A stretch of DNA of 64,000 bases, taken from NCBI GenBank assembly GCA_964218365.1, contig CAXPMI010000009.1:3632-67631 (forward strand). Direction: 5' to 3'. Below the pieces are notes generated by a model that saw only the letters and a program-made list of their open reading frames with translations, was not told the origin of the DNA and did not search any database. Of this stretch, positions 7,224 through 47,994 are shown piece after piece; position 1 is the first letter of the stretch; each line of letters starts with the position of its first letter. The DNA comes from Candidatus Poseidoniaceae archaeon (lineage in GTDB: Archaea > Thermoplasmatota > Poseidoniia > Poseidoniales > Poseidoniaceae). Position numbers and translations under genes: made by a program.

Positions 7224-7346
7224 GTGATGTTGGGAAACAAAAACACGAATAAAAAGACCGTACTGGGAGGCGCAGGAATTGCAATATTGCTGTGCGCACT
7301 AATGGTTGGTATGACAATGACCAATCTGGTGCCTTCAAGCGCATCC
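7224..7346 (+). other. Sec-type signal peptide of the giant protein
   Basis: A basic N-region (NKNTNKK) is followed by a hydrophobic core (GAGIAILLCALMVGMTM) and an A-x-A-like 'SSASQ' site. Confidence 0.6.
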
Positions 7347-13300: not shown

Positions 13301-16300
13301 CGGTGGTACTCTAGATTGGGATGACTCTACTATCCAGAACAACGGTCAAACAGGTATCGGTATAATGTTTGATGGAACATCGGCAAATGTCGACAACATC
13401 ATCGTCAAGAACGCTGCTGTTGGTATGTATTCAATGAATTCCGCACCAAAAGTCAACGGATTTACTCTGAACGACAACGATGTAGGATTGGATGTATACG
13501 GTGGAATGAGCTTGCCAACACTGTACAGAAGTACTCTATTGTCTGGACAAAGCAACGGTTGGACTACTCACGCTATCGACATGAGTGGATTCCTTGGTGA
13601 AGAATATGTCCAAATCGGATACAACTCTGTATACGGTGGAGGTAACGCACACCCAACATACAACTGGGCATCTGCAAGATACTACATGATCACTGATAGA
13701 ATGAATATTCAATTAACTGACAATAATGGAAACTCCTGGAACATCACTAGTACATCTGATGACGGATACTACAATGGTGCAATGGGAGGAGACTCCGGTA
13801 TCCCATCTTGGGACTGTCAACAGTATGGTTACAGTTACAACCCAGCACGCTGGGACTACAACTATAGAGCACCAACAGGATGGGATTGGGTTGAAACAGA
13901 CAACTCGCCTGTACAATACTACCCAATGCACTACTGGGGTTACTACAGTCCATCATGGTCATGGGGTAACTATGCTCCTCCTGAAGGATTGAGTGGATAC
14001 TACAATGTCTGTCTAGACTATGCATCTGCATACAGCAACAGACCTGGTGACTCGGTAAGGCTAACTATGCCTGTTGTCGACCTGAGCGGTATGAACAACA
14101 TTACTGGAATGAAGGTATACATTGATGTGTTCCACAACCGTGCTGACAACTATCAAGACAGACTTGAGTTCGTTGCAAGATCTGGTGACGACCCAGCAGA
14201 CTTAGGAGACTACGTAAGAGAATCTGGTACGCCACTGTTCTCAACCGGTACAATTACTGGTGCAGACACTGGTGTTGAACTCGGCGGCAACTATGCAGCA
14301 GCTGAATTCGTTGATATCACTGTTACATCACCTAACGATGCAGGATTCGAAGTTGTAGGAACAACAACATCTACAGTTGATGGGTTAGAAGTTACTGGTG
14401 GTCCTTACGGTATACTAGTAAGCTCTGGAGCGGCTGGTTCAGTTGATTTCACTAACGTGGATATTTCAGGCACCTCCAACTCTGGAGTATACTACAGCAA
14501 AGACCTGAAGGGCGCCTTAACTGGAACTATCGGTACATCCGCTGGACCGGGTATTAAGTTCGGCCCTGCTACTTCAAGTGACATATCATGGGAATCCATG
14601 GACTTGTCAACGAACGCAGTGGGTGTAGAAACCGCAGGTAGCGGTATCCTAACCTTCGTAGACAGCGACTTTGCAAACACAAAGGATGCAGTAATCAGTG
14701 GTTCAGGTACCATCGACTTCATTGAAGGTACCGTTGACGCAACAACTGTAGAAGTTACAGGCGCAGGTGTCTTTAACAGACTAAGATCGTTAGATGTTAC
14801 AGTTACAGCAGATACAAATGCTGTTACAGGAACCAACGTCCTTCTAAAGGACGGAAACGGTAATCCAACAGGATCTGCAATCACTGACAATAGCGGTATC
14901 GCATCAGGATTAACGTTCCCAACAGAGACCGTAACTTCCTCAGGTTTGAATGTAGAATCACTTACTGGATACCAAGCAGTAACAGTCGCAAAGGTTGGTG
15001 CATACAGCTACACTAGCCCAACTGTAAACTCTGCTGACTTCAGATATGCTCTAGAAAACCTAAGCCTGAACGATGCACCAGGAAACGCTCACAGCCTAGC
15101 GCTTGTTGAAACAGTCGATGCTCGTGTATGTTACCCATACACCATCTCTGGTTACCCAGCAATTTCCAACTGTCCAGGTCTCTCAACCTCTGGTTCGAGA
15201 ACCTACAGTTCTGGAATGAAGGAGTATGGATACTACCGTGCATTGGATACTAACATGGCTAACAAGGTAGTAATGATGGATTTCGGTTTAGTATACTTGA
15301 CTGGTAATACAGACTTCAGCTTCAACGGAAGTACTGTCCTTGTTACAGGGTCATACTCATACGATGACGCTGCTAGAATCTATGGAAGTTCTCCATACAA
15401 CACACGAATGTATGCGCACAACTCCGAATGGATATCGATTGCAGTCGATGACGAGGGTAATGCACAAGGATATCAACTGGGATACACTGGTAGAAACTAC
15501 CTTGTTCCTGATATTCAGAATTCCACACTGTCTGGACTATCTAGTATTTCGACCAACTATGGTCCTAAGTACGCATGGTCTAATTTCTACCAGTGGAAGG
15601 CTGACTTCTTCAACGTTCAGAACAACACAATCACTCACTTCAGAGATTCTGATACCACAAACGGTGTATACTACCAAGATATGTGTATGAACACAGGTGT
15701 CAAGAACACTGTAATCATGAACAATCATGTTAGCAACTGTGCAGTCGGTGTGTTCTTCCAGAGAACAGTTTACTCCTACTACCACGCACAATCTGAGTGG
15801 GGTGCTGACGGTGCAATCGTTGAAGGAAACACTTTCCACGATTCAGAGTACCTAGATGTATGGTTCTACCTGAACGCTTATGCTGACAACGTAACAGTCA
15901 GAGACAACGAGTTCACAGGAAGTTCCGCTCCAGGATACAACGTTTACACCCAAGATCGCACAACAATTGGTCTAGTGATTGACGAGAACACATTCTCTAA
16001 CGGTCAAGAACCAATTTACATGCGTGGTGGACTCGACTGGGAAATCACAGACAACACAATCTATGGTGACGGTGATGCATCGCACGTTGGTATCGCAGCA
16101 AGAAACGGCTACGGTATCATTGATGGAAACACTCTAATCGATGCAGATGGTGGTATTCTTGTTGATGGAATTACAGCTAACCAAGTTGTAAACATCACAA
16201 ACAACGATATCTCACAGAGCACAGGTAGAAGCGCACCTTCCGCAGTCGGTATTTGGGCTGAGGATTGTGCTTCTTCAATCATCAACACTGGTGGAAACAC

Positions 16301-19300
16301 AGTCAGTGTGATGGAGAACGCTTTGGTAACCGATGGTTGTGACATCGATGATTCAGGTTCTACCTTCACAGCGATTGGAGGAGCAGGTGGTACAGTATAC
16401 GGAGTACAGATTCTGTCTTACTCTTACTCACCACAGAACCTAACCATCAACGAAGGTGACTCAGTCCGTTGGAGATCTGTAGAATACTACAACAACAGCG
16501 GTACATGGGAACAGCACGACATTGTTGCAAACGACTCCACATGGGGCAGTGGCACAACAATGAACTTAGGTCAGACCTATGTCAAGACCTTCAGCACTGC
16601 TGGAACCTACGAGTACCACTGCAGTATTCACCCAGATATGACTGGAAAGATTACAGTTGTCTCCGGACAAGGTAGCGGATTCTCATCTACTGGTGTAAAT
16701 ATTATCGGAACAACCGATGAAATCACACTAGATGGTACATCGGTATCTGGATTCGAGACAGCAGTTGAGCAGTATGGTGGAGAACTAACACTATCTGGCG
16801 ACGCAATCGTTTCTGGTGGAGACTACGGTGTGTACGTCGAAGACACAGACCTGATTGTTGACGGTGCAAGAATTTCTGGTGACTCCGCTGGAACTGGTGT
16901 CTACGTGACAGGTGCTTCTACATTCGACGCGACTGACATGGACACATACGGTCTAGTTGGACTAGAAATCGATGCAGTCGACTTCCGCTGGAACGGTGGA
17001 GACTCTGGTGCCACAACAGCTCTAATGGCTGACGGAGGCGCAGAAGGATCTGTAGAGAACGTAACATGGGCTGATGTAACCACACAGATTGATGCTGGTT
17101 CATACGTGACAGTAACATCTGTTGGTAACTCAATCGATGCGTCCAAGTTGGTCCTTGACTCAACTGCAGTCATCCATGAAGGTAACTTGCTGAACTTGAA
17201 CATCACCCACAAGGGTGGCGATGCAACAGATGTCGGACTTCTAATCAAGTCCACTGACGGTGAGCAAGCAGCATACGTATCTCCAGGATACCGCACATCT
17301 TTCATCAACATCGATGGTGACCTCGAAGAGTGGTATGGTAACGTAAAGAACCCATCAGATGACGCAATGCCTGGTGTATTGTCTAGCGACAACGCTGGCG
17401 AGGACTTCCTTGCTACATGGGACGCTAACAACCTATACCTTGCTCTAACCGGAGTTGACATGGGTGCTGCTGACCTGCAGATTTACATCGATTCTAGCTC
17501 AGGTGGAGACACAACTGGACAAAGCTGGTATGTATCTCACGCTCTGCCATTCGCAGCAGACTATGTCTTCTGGGCAGAAGATGGTGCAAGCGGTAACTCC
17601 GGTCTGAAGGTCAATGGATTCAGCGGATGGTCCGATGTATCCTGTAGCAACCTTGCTACATACATCGGTCACTCTGGTGATACTGACACTGAACTAACAA
17701 TCCCATGGGATTGTATCGGACAGCCTGACAGCACTGTCAGACTAATCGTAGTTGTTCAAGATGAATCAACTGGTGCAGTATCCTCTGTACACCCATCACA
17801 AACAATTGCAACCGGTGCAGTAGGTCAGACCTTCAGCGATGAAATCACTCTGCTAATGGGTCACAGCGACCTAGACACAGGTGCGGATCTGAAGAACCAC
17901 CTGCTAATCTACCGCAGCTACGTTGGTTCTAACACACCAACTGATGCAAAGACATACGACATCTCCGCAAAGGTAGATGCTGTATGCGCTGAAGACTGGG
18001 GTACTCTGAACAATGTTGACATGAGCACAAACGTCGATGAAGAGATCGACATCAAGAGAGCATGTCCAGAAATTCAGAACTTGGTTGACATCACTGTTAA
18101 CGAAGACAGTGGTGCATACACCCTGACTCTAACTGACAAGGCAGACGATGTGCAAGATGATGAGAGCACTCTAACATGGACTGTAGCAGATGATGCAGAC
18201 CCATCAAAGAGCCCGAGCATGCTACTAGACAGTGGACTATCAGGTCAGACAATGACCATGACCCCTGACCACGACCAGTTCGGAACTTACACCTTCCACT
18301 TCGGTGTTGAAGACAGCCACGGATTGACAGACAGTGCAACCATTGTCTTCACTGTAATCAACGTCAACGACGCACCAATAATCTGTAACCAAGAGAGAGC
18401 AGATTGTATGCCTGTGTTCGCTGATGACGGTGCAGGTAACCTGAACGTTCTAGACGAAGGATTCGGAAGTGTCAGCAAGGTCCTAGGATCTGCCGCAAAC
18501 GCAACTGGTTCCTATGTAATCGATATGGCAAGCGATGACATGGCTAACGAGCAACCTCAGCAATACACATGGGGTGCTTCAATCAAGTCAGAAAACGTCA
18601 CAGTTGAGCCATACTGGGTACAGAAGAAGTTCAGCAGTGTTGCTGCACTATTCTCTGAAGCAGGTGCTGCAGTTACAGCAAACGGTGGATTCCAAGACAT
18701 CCCAATGACCGGTGACCCAGCAGCATGGTCTGCTGCTAACGCAAACGGTTCGTACACACTACCAACATTGAACGATGTTGCACTGTTGACTTACCTACTA
18801 GCTCAGAATGGTTGTGGAACAGTTTGGTACCAAGAGTACATGGATTCCGGCGGTAACAAGGTTACAGCGGTTCGCTCAGACGACGGCTGTGACAGTACAA
18901 TCGATGCTAACGCAGTTGTATACAACTCAATGAACTACACAGACTTCTGGAGTGTAGCATACGGAGTTGACGTCACATCCTTCGACACAACATGGGACGA
19001 GATCTTCCCGAACGGTTACACAACTACCGGTGGATACGACCCATGTCCTGCATACTCTGTATCTGTTGTCAACAATGAATTGACAATCACAGAGAACCAG
19101 GCTAACGAACTCGGTGGAGAATGTACAATCATTCTAACTCTGAATGACGACGGTGGATACTGTCAGAACACCTACCTAGGACGCACATCTGCATCAAAGG
19201 CTGCTTGTGTCTCCTACACATGGTTGATCGACTATGATATCACACACCCAGTATACGGTCCAATGACTGTTACAGGTTGTTACAACCTATACCTAGGACT

Positions 19301-21248
19301 AGCTTCCTTCATCCCTGAATACCTAGCACCAGGAGTTCCTTCTGGAATGACAGAGGACATCTGTCTTGCATACGGATGGGTTGGAGAGAACACAGATGCA
19401 ACACCAATGGAAGTAACCTTCGCAGTTACTCCTGTAAACGATGCACCTGAAGTACTAGAATGGGACCGCCAGGAAGGAGTTGTAATCTCTGACGGAAATG
19501 GAGAAGTTCCAAACTTCCCATGGAAGGTCACTCTAACCGAAGATGACGAGAACGTCAACAACTTGACATACGATCTGTCTGCAATGAAGCATGACAACGA
19601 TCACGAAGACGATGACCTCGTCTGGAGTATCGTCAAGGCTGACACCTGTGACTATGAGAACTACTTCTCTGCAACAATCGTAGGTGACGACATCGTCTTC
19701 GACCTGATTAAGGATGCTACAACAAACGCACCTGAGTGGGAACGTGACTACCTGAACAACGGTGGTATCCACCAGAAGAACCCTCTATCTGGTGAATTCT
19801 GTCCGATCACACTGTACCTACACGACACAGAGACTGCACCTGACTACATACCGAATTACGATATGAGCACAGCTAACTACCAGCAAGGTGAAGACAGTGT
19901 CACAATGTACATCCGTGTTGACAACGTTGCAGAGAACGTACCTGACTACTTCTTTGACAGTGTTTCCAAGTTCGACTACAACGAAGTATCCAACATTATG
20001 CCTAAGACAATGGTTCCAACAACTGTAACCATTGGACACGGTGGAGATGAAGGTCCATACAATTACGACCACATGCTAGAAGTTACCTTCTACAGCAACG
20101 GTTACAACAGTACAGACCAAACCGCTGAAGGATACGTCAACCTAGGTACAAACTATGTCATCCCACCTGCATACGGTGAGACTCTAGAAGTCACTGACAT
20201 GGTTTACATCACCTCAACAACAACCAAGATTTGGGTTGAGATGGATGTCCTAACTTGTGTAGACGAGAACTGTGACATGACAGCATCTCCAGAAGACAGA
20301 TACTTCGGATATGCATTCCCAGAGGCACACGCTTGTATCAAGAGCGATGGTACTCAGGGAACAGCATGGAGTTGTCCTGGTGAAGTAGGAAGTTCGAGTG
20401 TCGATGAAGATGGAAACCCATCTGCTGTCACACTAGAGAACAAGCGCCGACCAATGTTGGAAGACCAAGACTGGTGTAACAACTTGATGACCACAATGGG
20501 TAACGGATCTGACTGTGCTCAGCCAAGAACATTTGGCAAGACCACAATCGGTACAAACCAACAGATCCCAACCGTAGTTAGACTAATTGGAACTGCAGAC
20601 GTACCATCGTTCGCACCATCACTGATTGCTATCAGCGCAGCTGGACTATTCGTCAGCGCATTGGTTCTACAGAGCCGCCGTGACGAAGAGGAAGAAATCC
20701 TTGAAGAGATGACTCTTGAGGATGACGAGCAAGCGGTGAGCCCAGTTATCGCTACCATCCTAATGGTAGCAATCACTGTGGTTCTGTCCGGTGTAATCTA
20801 CGTCTGGGCATCCAGTTTGGCAGATACTTCTGCCAAGGGTGTCCCTCGAATGACATTCACTGTCGATTCGAGTCAGGCTGCTAACGGTGTAGACTCTTTC
20901 CACCGCATTACTGTGACTGGAAGCCAAGTTGAATTGGCTACCCAAGCTATTCGAGTAACATACGAATACACAGACCCTGCTGACGGAGAGACCTACAACG
21001 AGGTATACAACCTAGCAGACCCAACTGTCTACGGATTCTACCCAGGAAACTCACCTAGCATGGTCACCTTCGGTGACTCTGTAGGTAGTGAGGGTGGAGC
21101 TGTCAAGTCAAGCCTAGACACAGGTGACACAATCTACATCCGCTCAACCAACGACAACGGTGACCTCCTAGAGAATCTGTACATCGATGTCAGCTACGTA
21201 CCAAACAACGGAGCTGGCTCTGTACTGAGAACCTGGACTAACCTTTGA
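7224..21248 (+). CDS. Giant (4,674 aa) multidomain cell-surface protein: beta-helix arrays, cupredoxin, CBM9-like and cadherin-like domains, TM anchor, C-terminal type IV pilin-like module
   Basis: This is an uninterrupted 14,025-nt ORF. AGGAG at 7211-7215 precedes GTG 7224 / ATG 7227. The signal peptide is '[33 protein letters not shown]'. Parallel beta-helix (PbH1-type) repeats occur several times. 'VNDAP' cadherin-like motifs are present. See the sub-features below. Confidence 0.85.
   Translation: [4674 protein letters not shown]
15610..16330 (+). other. Right-handed parallel beta-helix (PbH1) repeat block
   Basis: Repeats of ~22-25 aa occur in series: '[11 protein letters not shown]', '[16 protein letters not shown]', '[17 protein letters not shown]', '[12 protein letters not shown]', '[19 protein letters not shown]', '[19 protein letters not shown]', '[18 protein letters not shown]', '[10 protein letters not shown]'. 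Similar blocks lie at about 11150-11800, 13130-13520 and 14230-14800. Confidence 0.7.
16390..16662 (+). other. Amicyanin/plastocyanin-like type-1 copper (cupredoxin) domain embedded in the giant protein
   Basis: The sequence is '[47 protein letters not shown]...[25 protein letters not shown]'. All four candidate Cu ligands are present: His (16515-16517), Cys (16620-16622), His (16629-16631) and Met (16638-16640). The C-x2-H-x2-M spacing matches amicyanin. Confidence 0.7.
18040..19460 (+). other. Cadherin-like repeat region
   Basis: Repeat ends have the typical '[14 protein letters not shown]' (about 18340-18380) and '[14 protein letters not shown]' (about 19415-19455) motifs. Acidic '[14 protein letters not shown]' type strands are also present. 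Confidence 0.55.
20619..20669 (+). other. Transmembrane anchor of the giant ectodomain
   Basis: The hydrophobic helix '[17 protein letters not shown]' is followed by 'QSRRDEEEE', consistent with the positive-inside rule. Confidence 0.65.
20709..21248 (+). other. Archaeal type IV pilin-like module (class III signal peptide + DUF1628-like body), in frame with the giant ORF
   Basis: An in-frame ATG at 20709 gives '[34 protein letters not shown]...'. This closely matches the conserved archaeal pilin N-terminus (..[21 protein letters not shown]..). A ~145-aa beta-rich body follows ('[17 protein letters not shown]', 'GDTIYIRS'). Confidence 0.7.
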
Positions 21249-37287: not shown

Positions 37288-37752
37288 TTATTCAATCTTT
37301 GCTGGCATTGATGAATGATGTAGATTTATTCTCAACTTGCCTTCTGAATCGGTAATGTATCCAAAGGTATACTCTACCTTTACCTCATCCCCTTCGGGAG
37401 TGGTGAAAAAATAATTTCCCATTGCAGTAGCAGAATTTCCACTCAATATCACGTCTGAGTTTTCGAATCTAACTTTGGTCCATCCCTTGATTGCGAATCC
37501 TTTGTCTTCTGGGCAGACGTTATTTGATGCAACAAAGTAGGATAATGCACTTTCGAAATCAGGCCTAAACTGCTCCTGTGCGGCGAGTGTGGGTTTGAAC
37601 AGTACCTTTGAAATTCCATATGCGTATAGTGTGTCTACGTGGTTTCTTGCAATCGACACATAGTCGCTACCAGAAGAATGCGCTGTAGCAATGGCAACAA
37701 TTCCATTTCCCCAAGCAGATTGTGCGCTATGTACATCATCTAAGGTAAGCAT
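37288..37752 (-). CDS. Conserved hypothetical protein, probably NTF2-like fold
   Basis: The ORF is 154 aa, with 'SAQSAWGNGIVAIA...' at the N-terminus and 'VKVEYTFGY...INLHHSSMP' at the C-terminus. The fold assignment is from recollection only. Confidence 0.35.
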   Translation of the reverse strand: MLTLDDVHSAQSAWGNGIVAIATAHSSGSDYVSIARNHVDTLYAYGISKVLFKPTLAAQEQFRPDFESALSYFVASNNVCPEDKGFAIKGWTKVRFENSDVILSGNSATAMGNYFFTTPEGDEVKVEYTFGYITDSEGKLRINLHHSSMPAKIE

Positions 37753-37804: not shown

Positions 37805-40345
37805 TCAATCTTCAGCCATTTCTGCTTCTAAGACATCATCGTCGTACTCTTTGTGTGATAGAACTACGCGATTGTTTGACTCTTTGAGGCTGTACCCTAA
37901 TCCGACCAATGCAACTACCAGTATCAGAGATAGGAAGGACATTGCTAGTGGGTATTCTGTGTAAATACCTGTAAGTGATGAAAAGAATCCGTCTTCTCCT
38001 TCCTCTCCACCCGTGTCTTTTGGCTTAATTAATGCCACAACAGCAGCTTGATCGTAGACTAGTCTAGTGAAAGTTAGTTTGCCATCATTATCTGAATCAT
38101 ACACCTCAGAAGGAAGTGCGGGGTCAAGGTCAGAATAGAAATCAGGTCTCTGTTCAAACGCGATGTCAACCGGCTGGCTTAGGTCAAGTGTCAGTAACAC
38201 GTCAACAGTGTATGGAATTCTTGATTCAAAGAATTCAGGGTCCTCAATTACACCGAACAGTGTGATAGCTTGTCCGGTCACATCGAAGTGAGCCCACTTG
38301 CCCCAGTGTGAACTGTCTACATCCAAATCATAGTACCAAGTATCAGCTATTCTGATTCCCTGTCCTTGTCCATCATTTGAGCCGTCTTCTCCCAAATCAA
38401 TTGAAAGTTGGAGTTGACCGGCTTGTGCAGTTTCCAACTCGAATTCAGATGCGGCGAGTGTTGCTTCTAGTCTCTCTGTTCCATTCGGAATAAAGACGTA
38501 GTGAGAATCTTCAGTGTAATATACAGCGCCGTTTGCACCGTTGTTGAAGTGGTTCCAGTCACCCTTCCAGGAGTGCTTAACTCTGTCAGTGTTCACAGGA
38601 ATTGTTGCAGTACCCATCATTTCTTGGTAGATTTCGTAAGCATCCCAAACGTTGTATTCAGGGTGGTCTACAAACCCGTCTCCATTTTGGTCTCTCATGA
38701 GTTGTAGGGTTCTTGCTAGGGCGACAGCAGCGTCGGTATCAGTTAGTCCGTGGCCAACACGCCAGTCGTGACATCCTCCTGTTGCGCTTCTGTAGCACTC
38801 TTCAGGAATGTCTGCACATCCATCTTCGCTGTTTCCATCTTCACAGGAATTTGCCATTCCATCATATCTCGATGTAAGTTCAAGGATTAACTCGAATTCG
38901 TGGACTCGGCTGTAATTTTCACTGTCCCAATTTTCGTACTGTCCATATGCAGCAGTGCCATCTCCTCCAACTAGACTGTCTCCAAAGTCGTGGTCGTCTC
39001 TATGGTAATCTGCAACTCCAAGCGAAGGTGCTGCATTTAGGACCAGCCCTGCGATGCCTCCAACGTGAGGTGTAGCCATCGATGTCCCTGAGATTGCCAT
39101 ATAGTACAAGTCGCCCTGTGTGCGGGTGGATGCATCGATTGCGGTACCTCGTGGAGCAGTAGCCCAAATATCACGGCCGGGCGCACCCACGTCCGGCCAA
39201 GTGTGCTGCTGATTCATACAACCTCTAGACGAGAATGATGTAACTGCAGTTCCGTCGTGAGTAAGTGCTGCAACAGATACAGCTGAAGGAGTGTTTGCGT
39301 AGACATTGGTTCGCAGGTCACCCGAGCACTCTGCTCCAGATCCTCCTGAATTAGATGCAGCAAATATTACCGCAACTCCGTTCTCGTAGGTCAGTTTGTC
39401 AGTTAGTTGGGCGATTACGCCTTGTGGGTTGTAATCTCCGTCGGTTCCCCATGAATTAGAAACAACACGAATGTGGTGCTGATTTTGTCCGGGTATCGAG
39501 TGTGCATATGTCCACTCTAGTCCTTGCTCAGCAGCGAAAATAGAAGCGCCATCACCAGTTCCTAGAGCAACAAGTTGGCCGCCCTTGGCAACACCCGCTC
39601 TGCGTCCACTAGAAGCATCACCGTTTCCTGCGATTGTTCCTCCAACGTGAGTTCCGTGCCCTGACGATGTGTCAGAGTTCCTAGTTTCAGTCCAGCCAAC
39701 ACCATCGAACTTAGCGGAATAAATCGCCTTGTCTCCCGTCCATGGTTCAAGATAGTCATAGTCTGGATGCCCGGCATCAACACCTGTGTCCAAATCCACA
39801 ATTGCGGTTCCGTCACCATCCCACTCAGTGAATGATTGGTCGATTTCGTATTCAACTTCGCCAGTTGGAGAAATGATTGCACGACTCCAAGAGTCGGTAG
39901 CAGTAACAACGTGGGTGGTTTCATGCATCATGATACCTGCATCGGTAGTAGGTTCTCCTCCCCATTCTGATGGCAAGTAGAAAAATTCGAGAGGCTTGTC
40001 AAGTTCAAGGTACTCGATTCTCTCCCAATTCGATAGTTCACGAACTTCTCCAATTGTTCCTTCAACCAATCCACCATCAACCAGTGGTGCCCTTCCAAGC
40101 ACCTCAAATCCTAACTCTATCAGGTGTTTCTCATCACTCTCGGTCATTGGGGAGTTAAGTTGGAATATTACTGGGATCAGTTTTGAGTTGTCGTTATTTT
40201 CCAACTCTTCCAATAGGTCATCATTCATTTTTGTGAGGTCTCCGAGTGGGTTTACACCATCTGCTAGAGGAGAAGCAACTGCGCTAAGCATTAGCAACTG
40301 GATGAAAAGTGCAGACGAAATGATGTAGCGTCTAGACGATGCCAT
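37805..40345 (-). CDS. Secreted, membrane-anchored subtilisin-like serine protease (S8)
   Basis: The signal peptide is 'IISSALFIQLLMLSAVASP'. The catalytic triad motifs are 'VDLDTGVDAGHPDY' (Asp), 'SGHGTHVGGTIAGNG' (His) and 'ISGTSMATPHVGGIAGLVL' (Ser). The C-terminal TM is 'LAMSFLSLILVVALVGLGY'. Confidence 0.85.
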   Translation of the reverse strand: MASSRRYIISSALFIQLLMLSAVASPLADGVNPLGDLTKMNDDLLEELENNDNSKLIPVIFQLNSPMTESDEKHLIELGFEVLGRAPLVDGGLVEGTIGEVRELSNWERIEYLELDKPLEFFYLPSEWGGEPTTDAGIMMHETTHVVTATDSWSRAIISPTGEVEYEIDQSFTEWDGDGTAIVDLDTGVDAGHPDYDYLEPWTGDKAIYSAKFDGVGWTETRNSDTSSGHGTHVGGTIAGNGDASSGRRAGVAKGGQLVALGTGDGASIFAAEQGLEWTYAHSIPGQNQHHIRVVSNSWGTDGDYNPQGVIAQLTDKLTYENGVAVIFAASNSGGSGAECSGDLRTNVYANTPSAVSVAALTHDGTAVTSFSSRGCMNQQHTWPDVGAPGRDIWATAPRGTAIDASTRTQGDLYYMAISGTSMATPHVGGIAGLVLNAAPSLGVADYHRDDHDFGDSLVGGDGTAAYGQYENWDSENYSRVHEFELILELTSRYDGMANSCEDGNSEDGCADIPEECYRSATGGCHDWRVGHGLTDTDAAVALARTLQLMRDQNGDGFVDHPEYNVWDAYEIYQEMMGTATIPVNTDRVKHSWKGDWNHFNNGANGAVYYTEDSHYVFIPNGTERLEATLAASEFELETAQAGQLQLSIDLGEDGSNDGQGQGIRIADTWYYDLDVDSSHWGKWAHFDVTGQAITLFGVIEDPEFFESRIPYTVDVLLTLDLSQPVDIAFEQRPDFYSDLDPALPSEVYDSDNDGKLTFTRLVYDQAAVVALIKPKDTGGEEGEDGFFSSLTGIYTEYPLAMSFLSLILVVALVGLGYSLKESNNRVVLSHKEYDDDVLEAEMAED

Positions 40346-40469
40346 TGTTGTAATTTCACTGCACGATTCTTATAACAATACTGATATTTTGCACTCAATG
40401 TATCTTACCGATGCCACGAGTGGTGTCGACTTCTGATGCTATCTGCATTGTTAATTGCAGCCTAGGTAA

Positions 40470-42512
40470 TCATATTCCATGAAGGTCCTTTGATTTGTTA
40501 TGGCTCCAATGATAAGCTAATTTCAGTATTTCAAGATAGTGTCCCTGACCGTCCTTGATCAACTTCTCATGAAGTGGTTCGTTGTTCATTAGGACATCTC
40601 CCCAAACATTTGCAGAGGTACCCTTCTTGCCCTTTGGCAGGTCGAAAACCTCCTTGGTTGTGGGCTCTAGTAGGTTCTTCCAGACAACGGCAGGGTTCAC
40701 TGCCATTGTAACTTCGACAATGATTTCATCTTCGTTCAGTCCAGTTCCTGTTTGCCAAGAATCTTCTCCCATATCTGCAAGGAATGGTAGGCACAGGTCA
40801 CTAATTGATAGTCCAGTCATTGGGTCCGCTCCAGTCATGTTTGCGAAAGCCTCTCTCATTCGTCCTCTGTCAGCACCTCTTGCTCCTGTTATGGAGCGGA
40901 GCTTGTCTATTGAGGTAGGTACTAGGAACCTGATGTCTGTGTAGTAAACGAGCGCTTGGTCGCTTCCTCCTTCCTTTGGTGCGAAGATGTGTGAGAACGG
41001 CTGAACACCGCCTGATTCTCCTAGCATATCAAGTGGGAATAGCGTCTTCAGAGCGTTTGTTGCAACAGATTGAACAACACGTCGTATCAGCCTCTCCGGT
41101 GCAGCAGAAACATCGTTGAAAGTTTCCATATACTCGTCAAGATTCAATACATCATATCCACGTACAGCAAGGATTGAGTGGACATTTGGTCCAAGTTTCT
41201 TGTTGTCTCCAACCTGCGCTTGGCTAATCCATCGAGCACCCTTGGCTTGGTCACTTGCGGTAATCAAGTCAGCATATGCCTTGTATCTGCGAGTAACTCT
41301 ATTCATGAAATCAGCTTGGTCAAGTTTTGTGAATACCGTGGCTGCATAGTTTGACTTTAGTGCATGGTCAGCAACTTGGCTTGCGTTAACACAGGTCAAG
41401 AGATTTCCTTGGTCTTGTGGGTAAACCAGTAATCTGCGTCTCTTTGATGCTCCTCCCAAAGTTCCGATGTTAGGGTCGGTTAGTAAGTAACCAAAGGTTC
41501 CAGTAACTTCGAACAATCTTGAATACTTGTCTTCATCTGTTGCGTTCTTAATCCACTCATCCAATCCAGGTTCAATACAGTGGAATTCTAGAGGCACCAT
41601 CTCTGAACCAGCGCCGAACATTTGGCGAACGGTGGATGATGACATCATGCCCATCATTGTGTAGAGAGATGTTTTTCCTGTGGTCAAATAAACGTCAGTG
41701 ATTCCTTCTTCGCCGAATGAAATACGGCGGTCTGGTAGATTGACTAGCAGATTGAATGCGGTTGCAGTGTCTCTGTTTCCATCCACTGCAGGAGTGATCC
41801 AAGTAGTTGGCTTTGTCATAATGTAACCACTAGCGTCCTTTCCAAATCCTGCTGGTGAGTATCTAATCCAGCCAAATCGGTTGTTGAATGCGACATTTCT
41901 GTGCATAAGAGATGGGTAGTATACCTTGTCTTGTGGGTCGGAGTCCGGAACAACTCCTCTGTGGCCAAGTCCCCACAGGATTGGCTCCCACTCGGCGTCT
42001 CCATCTTCATATCCACCAGTTCCTAGCAATGGGTGGTTGTTAGACAGGGTTTCTCCAGTAAGGAAAGAGCCTCCGAGTCTGTCTTCATCTCCGGTTGAAC
42101 AGAAAAAGAAAGTCTGTGTTGTAACCAATTGCTTAGGAGTCCACATGTTAGCATTAACTACGGTCTTCTGCTTCAAGAAGTCAGAAATTGTGCTGATTCT
42201 TCTTTCGAATTTGAATCTCTCTGACTCAATCCAAGTTGATCCCAATACCAGGTTAGTGTTGAGCAACTTAGGAACTCCTGGGCCAATATATCGTGTCCTC
42301 GGGTCTTCCTTGGTATTATCAGTTGCATGCACCATTTCCCATGGTCCCTCACGAGGTACATAATTCAAGAATTCCTCGTGGTTAAATGGCATCTTCGATG
42401 CTTCTTTGACTGCGTCTTCGACTTTGTCCATTAGTTGGACATATGTCTCTGATGGTGAAACTCTGCCACTTTCTTCAAACTGCTTTTGCGATACTGCTCT
42501 ATGTTCCCACAT
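40470..42512 (-). CDS. Hypothetical 680-aa soluble protein (no recognisable family)
   Basis: The ORF is long and clean, with ordinary globular composition and no TM or signal peptide. It starts 12 nt downstream of the EF-hand gene. No catalytic or nucleotide-binding motif was recognised. Confidence 0.6.
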   Translation of the reverse strand: MWEHRAVSQKQFEESGRVSPSETYVQLMDKVEDAVKEASKMPFNHEEFLNYVPREGPWEMVHATDNTKEDPRTRYIGPGVPKLLNTNLVLGSTWIESERFKFERRISTISDFLKQKTVVNANMWTPKQLVTTQTFFFCSTGDEDRLGGSFLTGETLSNNHPLLGTGGYEDGDAEWEPILWGLGHRGVVPDSDPQDKVYYPSLMHRNVAFNNRFGWIRYSPAGFGKDASGYIMTKPTTWITPAVDGNRDTATAFNLLVNLPDRRISFGEEGITDVYLTTGKTSLYTMMGMMSSSTVRQMFGAGSEMVPLEFHCIEPGLDEWIKNATDEDKYSRLFEVTGTFGYLLTDPNIGTLGGASKRRRLLVYPQDQGNLLTCVNASQVADHALKSNYAATVFTKLDQADFMNRVTRRYKAYADLITASDQAKGARWISQAQVGDNKKLGPNVHSILAVRGYDVLNLDEYMETFNDVSAAPERLIRRVVQSVATNALKTLFPLDMLGESGGVQPFSHIFAPKEGGSDQALVYYTDIRFLVPTSIDKLRSITGARGADRGRMREAFANMTGADPMTGLSISDLCLPFLADMGEDSWQTGTGLNEDEIIVEVTMAVNPAVVWKNLLEPTTKEVFDLPKGKKGTSANVWGDVLMNNEPLHEKLIKDGQGHYLEILKLAYHWSHNKSKDLHGI

Positions 42513-42524
42513 TTTATTTTCACC

Positions 42525-43679
42525 TCAGAATTTCTTCTTTTTCTTTGGAGTTTCTTTCACAACTTCTTCAGTTGTTTCTTCGCCATCAGACTCGTCTTCT
42601 GAATCTTCCGCTTCTTCAACGGCTTCATCTGATTCAGACTCGTCAGATGCATCTTCGTTATCATTTGATTCCTCGTCTGACTCTTCAACTTCTGTTTCTT
42701 CTTCAGTTGTTTCTTCATCAGCAGCCTCTTCAGTTTCTTCAACTTCTTCGGAACCTTCTTCCTCGGATTCAGTTGCAGGTTCTTCCTCTGCTTCGTCTCC
42801 GGTTGATTCTTCATCAGCAGCCTCATCCGTATCTTCCTCAGAGTCGTCTTCTACAGATTCTTCATCTTCGGATGTCTCAGTCTCTATGTTTGTCTCCACA
42901 GATTCTTCGTCACTTTCTGTTGTATTATCGGTTGATTCTGGAGCCTCTTCAACAGTTTCTTCTTCGGTTACCGAGTCTTCTGTTGCTTCCTCTGAATCCT
43001 CAGCAGCTTCTTCCTCTGTCTTCTCTTCTTCTACATATGGAATGAATTCTATACCGAGAGCATTTCTGATGTTTAGTAGTGCGATGTCTAATTCAGGAAG
43101 GTTGATTCTGCCGTCTGAGTTAATGTCCATGAGTTTGACTAATTCCTCAATTTCCCACGGTGGCAGGTTTGCAATTTCAGCAGCACGTAGCGCGTTTGCG
43201 AATTCCACCATGTCGATAGAACCAGAGTTGTCTACATCTGCCCACTCAAAGAATTGGACAGTTGTAGTTCCTCTGCTGCAAAGCCATTTTGTCAACTTGA
43301 CCAGGTCTTCATCAAATACAGGTCCACGCTCTGGTTCTTGTTCTTCTTCTCCTCTTGGGATTAGACTTTGGATTACAAGCCCGAGAGTTCCAAGCACAGC
43401 ACCAAGGCCGATAATCACTCCATTGTTTGTCCTTTGTGTGTCATTCGGGTCGATGTTGGTAGCCATGCCTGTTTCCGGCGGTATTGCGATGCCCGCTACG
43501 TTAGAAATAGCTTCAATTCCTACCCAAGCTGCAAAGATAATCATGATGATTGAAACAGTGTTTGCTGTCTTCACATCTTTGTTAATCCAGTCGATAAGGG
43601 GTGAACTAGCACCTTGCATGCTTGCGCGTTGCAATCTTAGCATATAATTAGTATCCCTTTTTTTATGGGGTACTAGCAT
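42525..43679 (-). CDS. Two-TM membrane protein with a canonical EF-hand pair and a ~250-aa polyacidic C-terminal tail
   Basis: The N-terminus is basic. The two TM helices are 'VSIIMIIFAAWVGIEAI' and 'VIIGLGAVLGTLGLVIQSLI'. The EF loops are 'DVDNSGSIDMVE' and 'DINSDGRINLPE'. An E/D/T/S-rich tail follows and ends in 'KKKKKF'. The start is uncertain (43679, 43715 or 43745). Confidence 0.7.
   Translation of the reverse strand: MLVPHKKRDTNYMLRLQRASMQGASSPLIDWINKDVKTANTVSIIMIIFAAWVGIEAISNVAGIAIPPETGMATNIDPNDTQRTNNGVIIGLGAVLGTLGLVIQSLIPRGEEEQEPERGPVFDEDLVKLTKWLCSRGTTTVQFFEWADVDNSGSIDMVEFANALRAAEIANLPPWEIEELVKLMDINSDGRINLPELDIALLNIRNALGIEFIPYVEEEKTEEEAAEDSEEATEDSVTEEETVEEAPESTDNTTESDEESVETNIETETSEDEESVEDDSEEDTDEAADEESTGDEAEEEPATESEEEGSEEVEETEEAADEETTEEETEVEESDEESNDNEDASDESESDEAVEEAEDSEDESDGEETTEEVVKETPKKKKKF
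43092..43238 (-). other. EF-hand pair (two 12-residue Ca-binding loops)
   Basis: Loop 1 is at 43203-43238 (D-V-D-N-S-G-S-I-D-M-V-E). Loop 2 is at 43092-43127 (D-I-N-S-D-G-R-I-N-L-P-E). Both satisfy the canonical pattern D-x-[DN]-x-[DS]-G-x-I-x-x-x-E. Confidence 0.75.
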
Positions 43680-43692
43680 CAATTTTCGGGCT

Positions 43693-46410
43693 TCATTCCT
43701 GAATCCATTCTTCATCCTTTGGTGATAGAACAAAGTGTACTGCAATCAAGGATATACCTAAGATGTATAACAGCGGTGCAACGTAGTCGAATGGAGTGTC
43801 GAAGTTAGTCCACCATGTCATGTACTCCTGGTTGTGAACTATTGCATCTTCCATCTCCTCAGCATCGTCATCTTCGATTTCAGAAGCGCTAACGATTTGG
43901 AATACAGGCTGCAAGTCTTCCATGGTAGGAGTAGTTGCAAGGTCGATTCCAGTTCTTGTATCCAAGTAGAATGTCGATGTTGAAGATCCTGCGATAATCA
44001 GTCCCGAAACATCCTCTGACATCAGAGAGATTTCGCTTCCGAAGTAGACAGGAAGTGCAGGAGTTGTGGCATCAAGTAGCGTGAAACTCTTGACCAACTT
44101 AGCAGTTATTGGATTAGTTGTAGGGTCTACAGACGCTGAACAATCATCGACTAGTATTCCTTTTACATCATCCTTGCCATCGCAAACAACTTCAGCGATT
44201 GCATAACCGCCTGCGTTTACCATGTCTCCTTCACCGGTAAGGAATCCACCGGTTGTGCCGTTTAGAGTTTCAACTGTAACGAGTCCGAAGGTAGCATTCA
44301 TCATGTCCATATTTCGCCAAGACAACTCGTTTGAACCATCTTCTGAGACAGCTTCACCCTTCTCACAATCTGGGTTGTGGCCTGTGCACATTACGTAAAC
44401 ACTAGCGTTTCCGGTAGAGATTCCGCCAGAGCCATAGTATGTTTCATTGGTCTCAAGTTTTGACCATCCTAATTCTGGGTTAGAAACATCTCCTGCAGCG
44501 AAAGCGCTTACAGGATCTCTCCAACCATAGAGCCAGTTGTTCAATGGCATGGTCATGTATTGTCCACTGCTTCCAAATGTTCCAATTAGGAACTCAGGGA
44601 CGAAGTCACCGTAAATCGCTTCCATCATTAGTGCACGCATTGCTGCTGCAGCGTTTTCATCAACACCGTAAATCATTGCAACAGTGGAAGTGTTCCACTC
44701 CATTGCAGGTCCGGGTGCCATTGTTGCCAAGTTAAGAGGAGGGGTCATACCTGTAAGTTCACCGTACAGGAATAGGGTGGCGCCAGTCGAACCAGTCAAA
44801 CCTAGTGGTCCGTATAGGATATTTCCAGATTGTTCTGCAGTAAGGTCAACCGCGGGTGAACCGGGAGCGAATACTGCAGACCATGCTCCGCCCATGTTGA
44901 GGCTGTTTGCTAGGTATCCTCCGTTAACAGGGTCTTCTGCACCAAATGAGACGTTGACGAATTGCTCCGCTGTCATTGTTCCAGAGCTGCCTAGAAGGGC
45001 CATGTTTAGAGAGGATGTGCTTGTCATCCATCCGCCAGCCCAGGTTGCAATTGCGCCGTACTGGGAGGCGTCAAGGCTGTAAGTTGCCATTGCTGTTGCT
45101 GCATCCATTGATGCGAATGCTGCAAGTCCGAATGCAGTACTATCTGCATTTGTTGCTAGCAATCCTGTTGGCATGTCAGTGTTTGCTCCACCAAATAGTA
45201 GTCCTGTAGCAACTGCGTTATCGATGTCAACGCCTAATAGGTTCATCAAGCGAGTTGATGCATTGACGTTTCCATCGATGTACCATGTGTCATCGCCGCC
45301 GCCGTGAAGTTCAGCGAATTGGCCAGCGACTCCAAAACATAGAGCCCAGTCTCTAGCGATTGTTGCATTGATGTCTGGAGTAGTTTCATCCATCATTGCT
45401 GTGAATCCCCAAACGGATGCTCGTTGCATTGTTCCAACGTTTGCAAATCCATTTGCTGCATCTGCCATTACTTCATCGTAAGTTGCTGTAGGGAATGCAT
45501 CACAGTGGCCTGCTAGTAGTAGGACACCCTGCATTGATGTTAGGGATGCATCATCTCCTGTAATCCATGTAGCGGATTCGAATGCATATGTCAGGTTGCC
45601 AATCGATGCGTTTCCAGTGAAGGTGATTCCGGATGGATCTCCTCCTGCTAGAGCCATTTGTTGTCCTTGGATTGCTTGGGTGTAGGTAACCATTACACCG
45701 GCGGAATCATTGTTCATCATCGAACCGTTGATAGAAGCGAAGTACATGTCGAACTGGTCGTACATTCCAACTCCGATCATCATTGAAGCAGTTGCTGCAT
45801 CAACAGCAACACCGTCAGTCATCGCACCTGCTTGTATAGCCTGGTACTGCATGTCCAGGTCTTCAGCAGTCTTCTTTGCTGCAGAGAAGGATTCTAGCTC
45901 GATGCCCATTACACCTGCAGCGAACCCAACCTTGGTTAGGTCCATGATTCCGCTAATTGCAGTTCCAGTTGCTCCAACTACTTGCGGTTGGAATGGAATG
46001 TTAAGTTGTGTAATCTCAGTGTTACAGTCATTTTCTGTGTCTTCAGCACAGGTAAATACCTTGGATTCGGTGTAAGTCAAAGTACCAGCGTCCTTGTCAA
46101 AATCAACGATTTCACGAGTGTAAGTAATGTCATAATTGAACGGACCGAGTTTCTCGTATACGGCCGCTTCTCCAGCCATCACTTCATCAACGTTGGTAAG
46201 GTTCCATGCGTAGTATGTTCTTTCTGACGTTGATGTTGCCCAGTCTTCCTCAGCTTCAGTACAGTCTGCATTTGCACATGCAGAGTCGTAAGGATAAGTT
46301 TCGAACTCCTCCTCGACTGCTACTTCTACCATGCTTGTTGCAATTGGTGATAGTAGTACCAAGTTCAACAATACCATGACTGCTCCGGCTATTAATTTCT
46401 GATTACCCAT
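43693..46410 (-). CDS. CD36/LIMP-2/SR-B-family-like membrane protein (N- and C-terminal TM, ~850-aa ectodomain with large Ala/Gly/Met-rich insertion)
   Basis: The N-terminal TM 'MGNQKLIAGAVMVLLNLVLL' resembles CD36 'CGLIAGAVIGAVLAV'. 'YYAWNLTNVDEVMAGEAAVYEKLGPFNYDITYTREIVDFDKDAGTLTYTESKVF' resembles CD36 'FWIFDVQNPQEVM....VKQRGPYTYRVRF...NVTQDAEDNTVSF'. 'LNNWLYGWRDPV' resembles 'RELLWGYRDPF'. 'PVYFGSEISLMSEDVSGL...TFYLDTRTGIDL' resembles '[23 protein letters not shown]...TYLDIEPITGFTL'. The C-terminal TM is 'VAPLLYILGISLIAVHFVL'. Confidence 0.6.
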   Translation of the reverse strand: MGNQKLIAGAVMVLLNLVLLSPIATSMVEVAVEEEFETYPYDSACANADCTEAEEDWATSTSERTYYAWNLTNVDEVMAGEAAVYEKLGPFNYDITYTREIVDFDKDAGTLTYTESKVFTCAEDTENDCNTEITQLNIPFQPQVVGATGTAISGIMDLTKVGFAAGVMGIELESFSAAKKTAEDLDMQYQAIQAGAMTDGVAVDAATASMMIGVGMYDQFDMYFASINGSMMNNDSAGVMVTYTQAIQGQQMALAGGDPSGITFTGNASIGNLTYAFESATWITGDDASLTSMQGVLLLAGHCDAFPTATYDEVMADAANGFANVGTMQRASVWGFTAMMDETTPDINATIARDWALCFGVAGQFAELHGGGDDTWYIDGNVNASTRLMNLLGVDIDNAVATGLLFGGANTDMPTGLLATNADSTAFGLAAFASMDAATAMATYSLDASQYGAIATWAGGWMTSTSSLNMALLGSSGTMTAEQFVNVSFGAEDPVNGGYLANSLNMGGAWSAVFAPGSPAVDLTAEQSGNILYGPLGLTGSTGATLFLYGELTGMTPPLNLATMAPGPAMEWNTSTVAMIYGVDENAAAAMRALMMEAIYGDFVPEFLIGTFGSSGQYMTMPLNNWLYGWRDPVSAFAAGDVSNPELGWSKLETNETYYGSGGISTGNASVYVMCTGHNPDCEKGEAVSEDGSNELSWRNMDMMNATFGLVTVETLNGTTGGFLTGEGDMVNAGGYAIAEVVCDGKDDVKGILVDDCSASVDPTTNPITAKLVKSFTLLDATTPALPVYFGSEISLMSEDVSGLIIAGSSTSTFYLDTRTGIDLATTPTMEDLQPVFQIVSASEIEDDDAEEMEDAIVHNQEYMTWWTNFDTPFDYVAPLLYILGISLIAVHFVLSPKDEEWIQE

Positions 46411-46594
46411 AGGTGTTCCCCAAGTAACTTGGGTGTACCTTTACTACTTAATGTAAAGGGCGGATTTTTTGCCGACTTAGGCCAATTTTCGCTTCTAATC
46501 CTGGTGCCAAAACAATCACTGAATCAGATTTTCAGATGGTACTAATTCTGCGCTCTTAGTGTAAAATTCGGATTATCTGGATGGGGAAAAAGGA

Positions 46595-46670
46595 TGGTGG
46601 ACGCTGTGGGATTTGAACCCACGGCCGCTTGGTTGCAAACCAAGCGCTCTTCCAGCTGAGCTAAGCGCCC
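46595..46670 (-). tRNA. tRNA-Ala (anticodon UGC), G3:U70, 3' CCA encoded
   Basis: The reverse complement is GGGCGCTTAGCTCAGCTGGAAGAGCGCTTGGTTTGCAACCAAG..GTGGGTTCAAATCCCACAGCGTCCACCA. The anticodon stem-loop is CTTGG-TTTGCAA-CCAAG. The G3:U70 alanine identity pair is present. Confidence 0.9.
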
Positions 46671-46707: not shown

Positions 46708-47994
46708 TCACACGCGGTCAACTGTAGCATCACGGTCTGGGCCTAGTCCAACAGAAGAGATTGGAACACCTAAAATCGATTCTAATTTTTTGATGTAATT
46801 CTGGGCAGCTGCAGGCAATCCAGTGAATCCGATTCCTTCTGAATTGCACTTTCTTGCGATTCCTAGCCACTCTTCTAGGGAATGCGATGGGAAACCAGGA
46901 ACGGTGACGTAGACTGGTTCACAATTTTCTAGGGCAATAGCGCTTGCAGGCATCTCATTGACTTCCGTATCTCCCATTTTGTATCCAACACAGATGTTGA
47001 TCTCATCCAAACCGCCAAGAACGTCCAATTTTGTTAACGCTATCTCAGTGAATCCATTGACTCTGGTGGAATGTCTCATGACAACTGCATCAAACCAGCC
47101 ACACCTGCGCCTTCTGCCGGTTGTGGTTCCGAATTCGTGTCCCACACTGGTAAGGTGCTCTCCGACTTCATCATAGAGTTCAGTGGGCATGTGTCCGTTC
47201 CCCACACGTGTGATGTACGCTTTCGTAATACCAATCACGTTGTCTACGTGACCAGGATGAATTCCAGCACCGTGAGTTGCGTTTCCTCTTGATGTTACGG
47301 AGGATGTCACGAATGGGAATGTTCCTTGGTCGATATCGAGTAGGCAGCCTTGTGCACCTTCTAGTATGATTCTCTCACCCATTTTTAGGGCATTGTCTAG
47401 AAGGATTCCAGTATCTGTAATGGCATTGCCAAATCTTTCCTTTATCCAAGTGATTTGCTCTTCTAATTCATTAGCAGTGACTCTCTGTCTGCATCCGGCA
47501 TTCTCTAGCGCCTTATTTTGCCGCTCAGCCATCTCATTGAAATCACAATAAGGCAGGTCTGCGAACCGCAGCCCAATTCGGTTGATCTTGTCCGCATAGG
47601 TAGGACCAATCCCACGACCTGTGGTTCCAATTTTCTTGTCTAGGCCATCGATGTAGGTGTGATATGGAAGTATTATGTGTGCACGGCTTGAAATAAAGAG
47701 TCTCTTTCCTGAGGGGTCTGTTCCTCCTCCTTCAACCCAATCGTTCAATTCCTTGTCTAATACCCACGGGTCGATTACCATTCCATCCCCTAGGATTAAT
47801 CCACACTCTTCACGTGTAATTCCAGATGGCAGCAAATGGAATTTGAGCACCCTGTCGCCAAGAACTACAGTGTGGCCTGCGTTATTTCCTCCTTGGAATC
47901 TCGCCACCCAGGTGGCACTTTCAGCCAATCGATCGACTAGTTTCCCTTTACCTTCGTCTCCCCATTGGGCACCGAGTACAACTGTGGCTGGCAT
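46708..47994 (-). CDS. purA: Adenylosuccinate synthetase
   Basis: Motifs seen are 'VVLGAQWGDEGKGKLVD', 'GGNNAGHTV', 'GTTGRGIGPTYADK' and 'TTGRRRRCGWFD'. Confidence 0.92.
   Translation of the reverse strand: MPATVVLGAQWGDEGKGKLVDRLAESATWVARFQGGNNAGHTVVLGDRVLKFHLLPSGITREECGLILGDGMVIDPWVLDKELNDWVEGGGTDPSGKRLFISSRAHIILPYHTYIDGLDKKIGTTGRGIGPTYADKINRIGLRFADLPYCDFNEMAERQNKALENAGCRQRVTANELEEQITWIKERFGNAITDTGILLDNALKMGERIILEGAQGCLLDIDQGTFPFVTSSVTSRGNATHGAGIHPGHVDNVIGITKAYITRVGNGHMPTELYDEVGEHLTSVGHEFGTTTGRRRRCGWFDAVVMRHSTRVNGFTEIALTKLDVLGGLDEINICVGYKMGDTEVNEMPASAIALENCEPVYVTVPGFPSHSLEEWLGIARKCNSEGIGFTGLPAAAQNYIKKLESILGVPISSVGLGPDRDATVDRV

Follow-up and report, generated by a model that had tools for sequence, protein, structure and literature searches.

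Do three consecutive genes in a 64,000-nt chromosomal stretch from a Poseidoniaceae (Marine Group II a, MGIIa) archaeon form one system, or does their locus combine separate units? The Poseidoniaceae have not been cultured, rank among the most abundant archaeal families at the ocean surface and carry many lineage-specific genes that lack annotation. For this stretch, called the window below and serving as the reference for all coordinates, a first-pass annotation proposed a three-gene operon for the Ca-regulated uptake or processing of hydrophobic cargo, composed of a CD36-like protein, an EF-hand membrane protein with an acidic tail (here called the partner) and a 680-aa cytoplasmic protein. 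The co-directional arrangement of the three genes on the minus strand is borne out by the coordinates of their open reading frames (ORFs), as follows.

43693-46410, minus strand: CD36-like gene, 905 aa (ORF list and Pfam)
42525-43745, minus strand: second gene (partner), longest ORF (ORF list)
42525-43619, minus strand: partner gene from its conserved start, 364 aa (comparison of orthologous loci)
40470-42512, minus strand: 680-aa gene (ORF list)

Searches with the window proteins found the 680-aa gene in 189 species-level genomes, and 80 of these species-level loci (numbered with the prefix L) were compared; 50 hold at least 4.2 kb of DNA upstream of the 680-aa gene and 53 hold at least 1.3 kb. 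The locus very probably consists of two independent units and not of a trio. Unit A (42525-43660 and 40470-42512) comprises the partner and 680-aa genes, a vertically inherited, family-wide and translationally coupled operon preceded by a promoter-like element of its own. Unit B (43693-46531) contains the CD36-like gene, an independent and movable unit that is a recent neighbour and lies outside the conserved module. The whole explanation, in which Unit A is a conserved tether-type operon beside a separate CD36-like unit, is considered moderately probable. What survives of the proposed three-gene system is the link between the second and third genes; the membership of the CD36-like gene and calcium regulation as a general element do not.

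The operon of the partner and 680-aa genes

A partner homologue lies directly upstream of the 680-aa gene in all 53 loci with sufficient upstream DNA, 52 of them by the automatic call and the 53rd (L039) holding a more diverged partner. The link between the two genes is further upheld by the construction of their junction, for which the sequence confirms the 12-nt gap reported earlier in the window. At each of the 79 junctions the partner ends in K-F-stop and the stop codon overlaps a Shine-Dalgarno sequence, T(G/A)AGGTGA; the distance from there to the 680-aa ATG is 9-12 nt in all but one of them (16 nt). With the end of the partner gene placed inside the 680-aa ribosome-binding site, both proteins would be made together. 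The codons of the terminal K and F vary synonymously among the 79 loci (AAA/AAG and TTT/TTC), so that the constraint acts on the protein. Clustering of the neighbouring genes revealed at least four genus-level contexts, including genes for an M28 peptidase, a PIN-domain ATPase, a thermosome-like protein, purH and an S2P protease, in which the pair alone is constant. No description of the pair, of its K-F terminus or of the coupling was found in the literature.

Loss of the 680-aa gene was observed in L087 and L088, where it is deleted along with three other genes, so that at least one lineage can do without it. At this site (6001-6574) a partner of 127 aa remains, with a stop codon inside the acidic tail before the KF, and the acidic coding sequence runs on beyond it.

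The 680-aa protein has an isoelectric point of 5.5 and is predicted to be cytoplasmic, with neither a transmembrane (TM) segment nor a signal peptide; its earlier description as a large, soluble protein of no recognisable family holds, as searches of Pfam, NCBIfam, PHROGs and PADLOC gave no matches. Pfam searches with all 30 aligned members yielded two chance matches only, self-profile comparison detected no internal repeats, and a scan of viral contigs for relatives returned none. The remote-homology check suggested with the initial proposal was run as a profile search of PDB sequences, and its best match (E 1.4) was noise. An exhaustive phmmer search of 1.84 billion cluster representatives found one full-length 50%-identity cluster, the rest being frameshifted or partial fragments. 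A Walker A motif at TTGKTS was considered and rejected, since the G/A-x4 prefix is missing. An anti-phage or viral origin of the pair was likewise set aside on account of the missing PADLOC, PHROGs and viral-contig matches, the fixed chromosomal position and the vertical inheritance.

The 120 listed clusters all share 71% identity or more with the 680-aa protein of the window. In five related genomes the protein is 92-99% identical to that of the window, compared with 92-99% for PurA and 80-97% for TFB. Its conservation equals that of PurA and exceeds that of TFB and of the subtilase encoded downstream, and the purifying selection acting on it matches that on PurA in strength. The 80 inspected genomes are all of Poseidoniaceae or Poseidoniales type, except for a metagenome-assembled genome labelled as the bacterium Salipiger bermudensis (L011, CAXQWT010000009.1). 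This genome carries the pair in typical Poseidoniaceae synteny, and its label is probably a binning or labelling error. AlphaFold2 (AF2) prediction of the 680-aa protein from a 30-sequence alignment gave a predicted local distance difference test (pLDDT) score of 38 and a predicted template modelling (pTM) score of 0.29; the scores are low because the homologues are all at least 72% identical and the alignment is too shallow.

The features of the partner gene and of its junction in the window are listed below.

43660-43642, minus strand: predicted B recognition element (BRE)/TATA-like element AAAGGGATACTAATTATAT, 28-32 nt upstream of the ATG
43503-43559, minus strand: partner TM1, aa 21-39
43359-43415, minus strand: partner TM2, aa 69-87
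43092-43238, minus strand: partner EF-hand loops, aa 128-139 and 165-176, genus-specific
42546-43040, minus strand: partner polyacidic tail, about aa 194-358
42528-42545, minus strand: partner C-terminal ...KKKKKF
42520-42526, minus strand: Shine-Dalgarno sequence GAGGTGA of the 680-aa gene, overlapping the partner TGA stop (42525-42527)

Alignment of the DNA upstream of the partner gene across 57 orthologous loci revealed a conserved start codon 22-32 codons ahead of the TM1 motif. The partner gene of the window therefore starts at the ATG at 43619 (MQGASSPL...) and not at 43679, and the ATG at 43643 falls within the TATA box. The spacer from the CD36-like stop codon to the partner ATG is thus 73 nt instead of the 13-nt gap read originally, and the statement that there was no room for an internal promoter falls with it. 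An AT-rich TATA-like element is present upstream of the partner ATG in 54 of the 57 loci, in the forms TTATAT, TAATTATAT or TTTAATA, mostly at about -28 to -32 and often preceded by a purine-rich AAAGG. Members of a Poseidonia subgroup have TTTAAA at about -42 plus GAGG near -10, and in a few loci the element is called nearer -20. In the window the element is AAAGGGATACTAATTATAT and falls within the 73-nt spacer, and the same element precedes the partner gene of L003, which has no CD36-like gene. By sequence, it is a predicted promoter-like element of the conserved two-gene operon, and its distance of 28-32 nt from the start codon would imply a leaderless or near-leaderless mRNA.

Proteins of the partner family begin with a short N-terminus, after which comes TM1, where S, A, W, E and N positions are invariant. 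A loop of about 30 aa, which in most genera contains PPxTG...DxxDxQRxNNG, leads to TM2 and its GLGAVxGTxG (hydrophobic segments throughout were called by the hydropathy of 19-mers). An acidic low-complexity tail follows, unconserved in sequence and variable in length, so that the length of the whole protein varies between 143 and about 433 aa; in the window, D and E account for 86 of the last 164 residues. Within the tail, only the terminal K-F is invariant, usually as (K/R)-K-F. The TM core is about 40-55% identical among orthologues and the tail shows no conservation, versus at least 72% identity for the 680-aa protein. A profile search with the TM core matched only Poseidoniaceae-type proteins and no distant homologues. 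Two C-terminal signals were tried and rejected, a di-lysine KKXX-type signal because the lysine at -3 is unconserved and only KF is invariant, and a PGF-CTERM-type sorting signal because there is no hydrophobic segment at the C-terminus. On the other strand, a serine-rich ORF of 413 aa (42406-43647, plus strand) runs antisense to the acidic tail. It is not a gene and arises from the GAA/GAT-rich repeat coding of the opposite strand, and simple longest-ORF gene calls were misled by this antisense serine-rich ORF in several loci.

The EF-hand_7 match in the window partner scores 36.6 bits (cut-off 30) and covers two canonical 12-residue loops, DVDNSGSIDMVE and DINSDGRINLPE, of the form D-x-[DNS]-x-[DNSG]-x6-E; weak sub-threshold Dockerin_1 matches fall in the same region. 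Together with its flanks, the EF-hand pair amounts to about 95 aa inserted directly after TM2, and it is present in the window, L003, L007 and L081-L083 only. Pfam detected no EF-hand in seven partners of other genera (0/7), and the pair is also missing from their aligned sequences. Calcium regulation as a general feature of the locus is contradicted by this distribution, the EF-hand pair being an insertion of the window's genus. Of the two-TM EF-hand protein with a cytoplasmic acidic tail described at first, the two TM segments and the EF-hand pair stand; its topology had been based on a strongly basic N-terminus, which was due to 20 extra residues from the wrong start, and the N-terminal segment from the conserved start has a net charge of 0.

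The CD36-like gene and the variable site beside tRNA-Ala

No CD36-like gene was found in the fetched flanks of any of the 80 loci, 50 of which extend 4.2 kb or more upstream. The absence from 50/50 species loci removes conserved synteny of the three genes and refutes the trio as a general system; in other genera the CD36-like gene lies elsewhere. Further contigs were added by following CD36-like homologues of decreasing identity. Homologues 94% and 85% identical to the window protein (L081-L083) adjoin the pair as in the window. Those with identities of 74%, 71%, 70% and 68% are found at another, mutually conserved locus (L084-L086, L089-L091; five lineages) in the order PheRS - YbjQ - YbjQ - CD36-like - membrane protein of about 285 aa, near genes for a GDSL lipase of about 900 aa, a fatty-acid desaturase, PAP2, GDPD and MMPL proteins. 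The gene for the membrane protein of about 285 aa, which belongs to no family, always follows the CD36-like gene by about 45 nt (e.g., L084 680-13633), and its product is more likely to be a partner of the CD36-like protein than are the products of the window's genes. A separate 92-aa EF-hand protein is encoded about 9 kb away at this alternative locus.

The site in the window is defined by the following features.

46708-47994, minus strand: purA (ORF list)
46595-46670, minus strand: tRNA-Ala(UGC) (ARAGORN), upstream border of the variable insertion site
46411-46531, minus strand: CD36-like upstream region, moving together with its gene
46457-46448, minus strand: TATA-like tttacattaa, read from the sequence, candidate promoter element
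46421-46417, minus strand: GGGGA, read from the sequence, candidate Shine-Dalgarno sequence
43672-46588: variable spot in the window, corresponding to 6823-9909 in L081, 6800-9879 in L082 and 4620-4678 in L003

L003 and L007 belong to the window's genus (680-aa protein 95% and 92% identical) and have no CD36-like gene at the site; tRNA-Ala is followed by the partner gene within about 60-100 nt. DNA alignment placed the extra 2.9 kb of the window exactly between the tRNA and the partner gene. Homology with L003, L007, L081 and L082 spans purA and the tRNA and ends at about 46589-46597, and that with L081 and L082 resumes at 46531 despite a preceding 3.1-kb extra gene there; about 120 nt upstream of the CD36-like gene thus travels with it. 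The extra gene of L081-L083, between tRNA-Ala and the CD36-like gene, encodes a 962-aa surface protein with thrombospondin-type-3 repeats. The spot is therefore empty in L003 and L007, whereas it is filled by the CD36-like gene in the window and by the 962-aa and CD36-like genes in L081-L083. The species-representative contigs L001 and L002 (99% identical) end at the spot, as is expected of variable regions, which break metagenome assemblies.

The CD36-like alleles are also discordant with their flanks. In L082 and L083, the N-terminal part of the partner, PurA, TFB and the 680-aa protein are 95-99% identical to those of the window and the S8 and 154-aa proteins encoded downstream are about 92-93% identical, but the CD36-like protein is only 84.5% identical. 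In L081, the flanks are 71-94% identical and the CD36-like protein is 93.6% identical. This discordance points to recombination or allele exchange of the surface protein. The site beside tRNA-Ala is a strain-variable slot that holds zero, one or two surface-protein genes, whose alleles are exchanged. A search around the CD36-like gene for att-like direct repeats of the tRNA 3' end, which would point to integrase-mediated insertion, found none.

The 905-aa protein matches the Pfam family CD36 (PF01130) with E 2e-14 and 53.4 bits (cut-off 26.5). The match covers only aa 55-150 (45961-46248) and profile positions 41-134 of 463, and Pfam searches with aa 151-905 (755 aa, split in two) gave none. 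A profile search of PDB sequences returned LIMP-2/SCARB2 as the sole match (E 2.4e-4, aa 65-140). Hydrophobic 19-mers are found at aa 6-24 and 877-895 and nowhere else. The AF2 model has a mean pLDDT of 52, with the N- and C-terminal strand regions below 50 and a helical insert of about 300 aa (about aa 170-460, 45031-45903) at 70-90. Foldseek with this low-confidence model gave LIMP-2, LmcA and CD36 as top matches, all weak, and aligned about 125 columns to LIMP-2 (E 6e-3). Of the "CD36-like tunnel protein" of the first-pass annotation, the family membership is thus confirmed by score, and the tunnel is not, as only about 100 N-terminal residues are recognisable and the AF2 model is poor. Over 600 cluster representatives are known for the protein, every one of the Poseidoniaceae type, and some orthologues are already named "CD36 family protein" by NCBI; no literature combining CD36 with Poseidoniales or Marine Group II was found. 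Because the usual locus is rich in lipid-related genes, a lipid-handling role of the CD36-like protein alone is plausible. Such a role would be independent of the pair, and nothing links the CD36-like protein functionally to the other two genes.

Downstream of the 680-aa gene, after which no oligo-T terminator is visible, the membrane-anchored subtilisin announced earlier was found as follows.

37805-40345, minus strand: S8 subtilase gene, 846 aa (ORF list, Pfam and NCBIfam), 124 nt downstream of the 680-aa gene
40370-40375, minus strand: TATA-like TTATAA, 25-30 nt upstream of the S8 ATG

The protein matches PF00082 (Peptidase_S8, E 2e-35), its catalytic motifs DTGVD, HGTHV and GTSMATP can be read in the translation, and it has one hydrophobic segment at each end. 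The TATA-like element points to a separate promoter for the S8 gene and to a leaderless transcript. The gene adjoins the pair in the window's genus only (L001-L008, L081-L083). A 154-aa ORF (37288-37752, minus strand) gave no match in the Pfam scan of the window; for its orthologue in L081-L083 the precomputed Pfam table gives PF27546 (MICAH), and a difference in version may be the reason. The interval is flanked by archaeal housekeeping genes (TFB, purA, LonB, GatD, prepilin peptidase and tRNA-Ala), and the closest database relatives of the window genes are all named Poseidoniaceae or Poseidoniales. Elsewhere in the window, a giant ORF of 4674 aa (7224-21248, plus strand) combines one cupredoxin and one bacterial Ig domain with an archaeal type IV pilin N-terminal domain, the last of these close to the C-terminus at aa 4503-4562. 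It is preceded by two ORFs of about 1060 aa, one with an FtsX-like permease domain.

Readings of the locus

The conserved features of Unit A would fit a membrane tether. The partner hairpin may insert such that its short loop is exposed outside while its two ends stay cytoplasmic, the acidic tail would serve as a flexible spacer, and the terminal KF peptide could dock the co-translated 680-aa protein, holding it at the inner face of the membrane. In the window's genus, the EF-hand pair at the base of the tail could render the tether Ca2+-sensitive. Docking through KF is put forward tentatively, by analogy with known docking tails. The fuller proposal of an undescribed membrane-tethered complex, universal in Poseidoniaceae, in which the K-F peptide docks a cytoskeletal, coat-like or enzymatic element of new fold, with EF-hand control by Ca2+ in one genus, is speculative and, taken whole, rather unlikely.

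Several points weigh against the explanation by a tether-type operon and a separate CD36-like unit. The positive-inside rule, applied with the corrected start, gives no clear topology for the partner. No fold, docking pocket or activity can be named from the AF2 model of the 680-aa protein (pLDDT 38), and remote structural homology of this protein to a known family is possible. The joint loss in L087 and L088 is weak support for a functional link, as a single deletion also took three other genes. Between the CD36-like and partner genes, no oligo-T terminator was found by reading the sequence, and read-through co-transcription from the former into the latter is possible in this genome. One and the same genus has the CD36-like neighbour, the EF-hand insertion and the S8 neighbour, and these may be functionally linked there instead of coinciding by chance.

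Among the other explanations, the one that survives best accepts the operon and denies the complex. The 680-aa protein, whether an enzyme or a structural protein, would act alone, the partner would be a co-expressed accessory, for example in cation buffering or membrane organisation, and the KF would be used otherwise. A conserved operon alone does not prove physical contact, which counts against docking as well; conservation is much lower in the partner than in the 680-aa protein, and L087 and L088 retain a truncated partner ORF beside the lost 680-aa gene. Against this stand the K-F itself, which is invariant on an otherwise unconstrained tail in 79/79 loci through synonymous codons and thus has the signature of a docking peptide, and the universal translational coupling, which is typical of products needed in matched amounts. 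This explanation is judged unlikely.

A second explanation reverses the topology, such that the acidic tail and EF-hands face outward, the partner is a surface cation-binding protein and its tie to the 680-aa protein is regulatory or historical. The corrected N-terminus gives no positive-inside signal to oppose such an arrangement, the Dockerin_1 matches would suit it, the Ca2+ of seawater would hold external EF-hands loaded, and the neighbours in this genus (S8, CD36-like and TSP3-repeat proteins) are surface proteins. However, the export of an acidic C-terminal tail of 160-290 aa from a two-TM hairpin with a 30-aa loop and no signal peptide would be unusual in light of what is established about membrane-protein insertion, and the product of the coupled gene, the 680-aa protein, has no export signal. 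The outward topology is considered quite improbable.

The original reading, a single Ca-regulated operon for hydrophobic cargo, perhaps as a recent innovation of the genus, can draw on the adjacency and common direction of the genes in the window and L081-L083, the missing terminator, the shared genus of EF-hand insertion and CD36-like neighbour, and the lipid-related genes of the usual CD36 locus, but is very improbable given that L003 and L007 keep the EF-hand version without a CD36-like gene, that a conserved promoter element separates genes 1 and 2, that the CD36-like allele is discordant with its flanks, that an unrelated surface-protein gene shares the site in L081-L083 and that most partner orthologues have no EF-hand.

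The explanation by two units changes what the locus offers. A tempting annotation as a eukaryote-like lipid-uptake system is removed. In its place stands a single-copy 680-aa gene with PurA-like conservation and no relatives elsewhere, which points to a lineage-specific function, supported by its coupled partner; the invariant K-F terminus is a concrete and cheaply testable lead. Lineage-specific orphans are common, and the pair is still a clean lead in an abundant uncultured lineage. The CD36-family gene, for its part, is a mobile surface-protein gene at a strain-variable tRNA site with a lipid-related usual locus, and bears on ideas about lipid uptake in Marine Group II. The CD36-family naming was already known from public annotation; what remains besides it is an uncharacterised, Poseidoniaceae-specific operon.

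Comparison with known systems

The CD36-like protein resembles CD36, SCARB1 and LIMP-2 in having a TM segment at each end around a large middle part, its orientation being predicted, and differs in being double the length of the animal members. Its predicted helical insert of about 300 aa compares with a three-helix bundle in LIMP-2 and CD36 (PMC8972800). The mycobacterial LmcA (MSMEG_0317) demonstrates that CD36-fold lipid-binding barrels exist in prokaryotes (PMC8972800). LmcA is only about 260 aa long and has no apical helical bundle; no sequence relationship to the window protein was detected, and the Foldseek E-values are weak (8e-3 to 3e-2) and come from a low-confidence query model.

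With regard to the pair, MGIIa genomes share lineage-specific families, some with Ca-binding domains, such as the 99 families of the Poseidoniaceae-specific module 135 (Meheust et al. 2022, PMC9258230). The pair would fit this category; no function, operon structure or motif was found for its two families in the text. Compared with prokaryotic EF-hand proteins, the window partner is similar in its two canonical loops and its Pfam match above the cut-off, whereas it differs in carrying its EF-hands inside a membrane-protein tail, as an insert confined to one genus.

The closest parallels for the proposed tether are systems in which a linker ends in a C-terminal docking peptide, namely FtsZ, whose C-terminal peptide binds ZipA and FtsA, and the acidic tail of SSB, which ends in ...DDDIPF. 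The partner shows no sequence relationship to either. Its terminal motif is basic (K/R-K-F), its peptide is carried by a membrane anchor and not by a soluble protein, and binding is proposed here by analogy. What the partner shares with the FtsZ and SSB tails is the layout, in which an anchor or core is followed by a long, variable and unconserved linker and then by invariant terminal residues that end in an aromatic residue.

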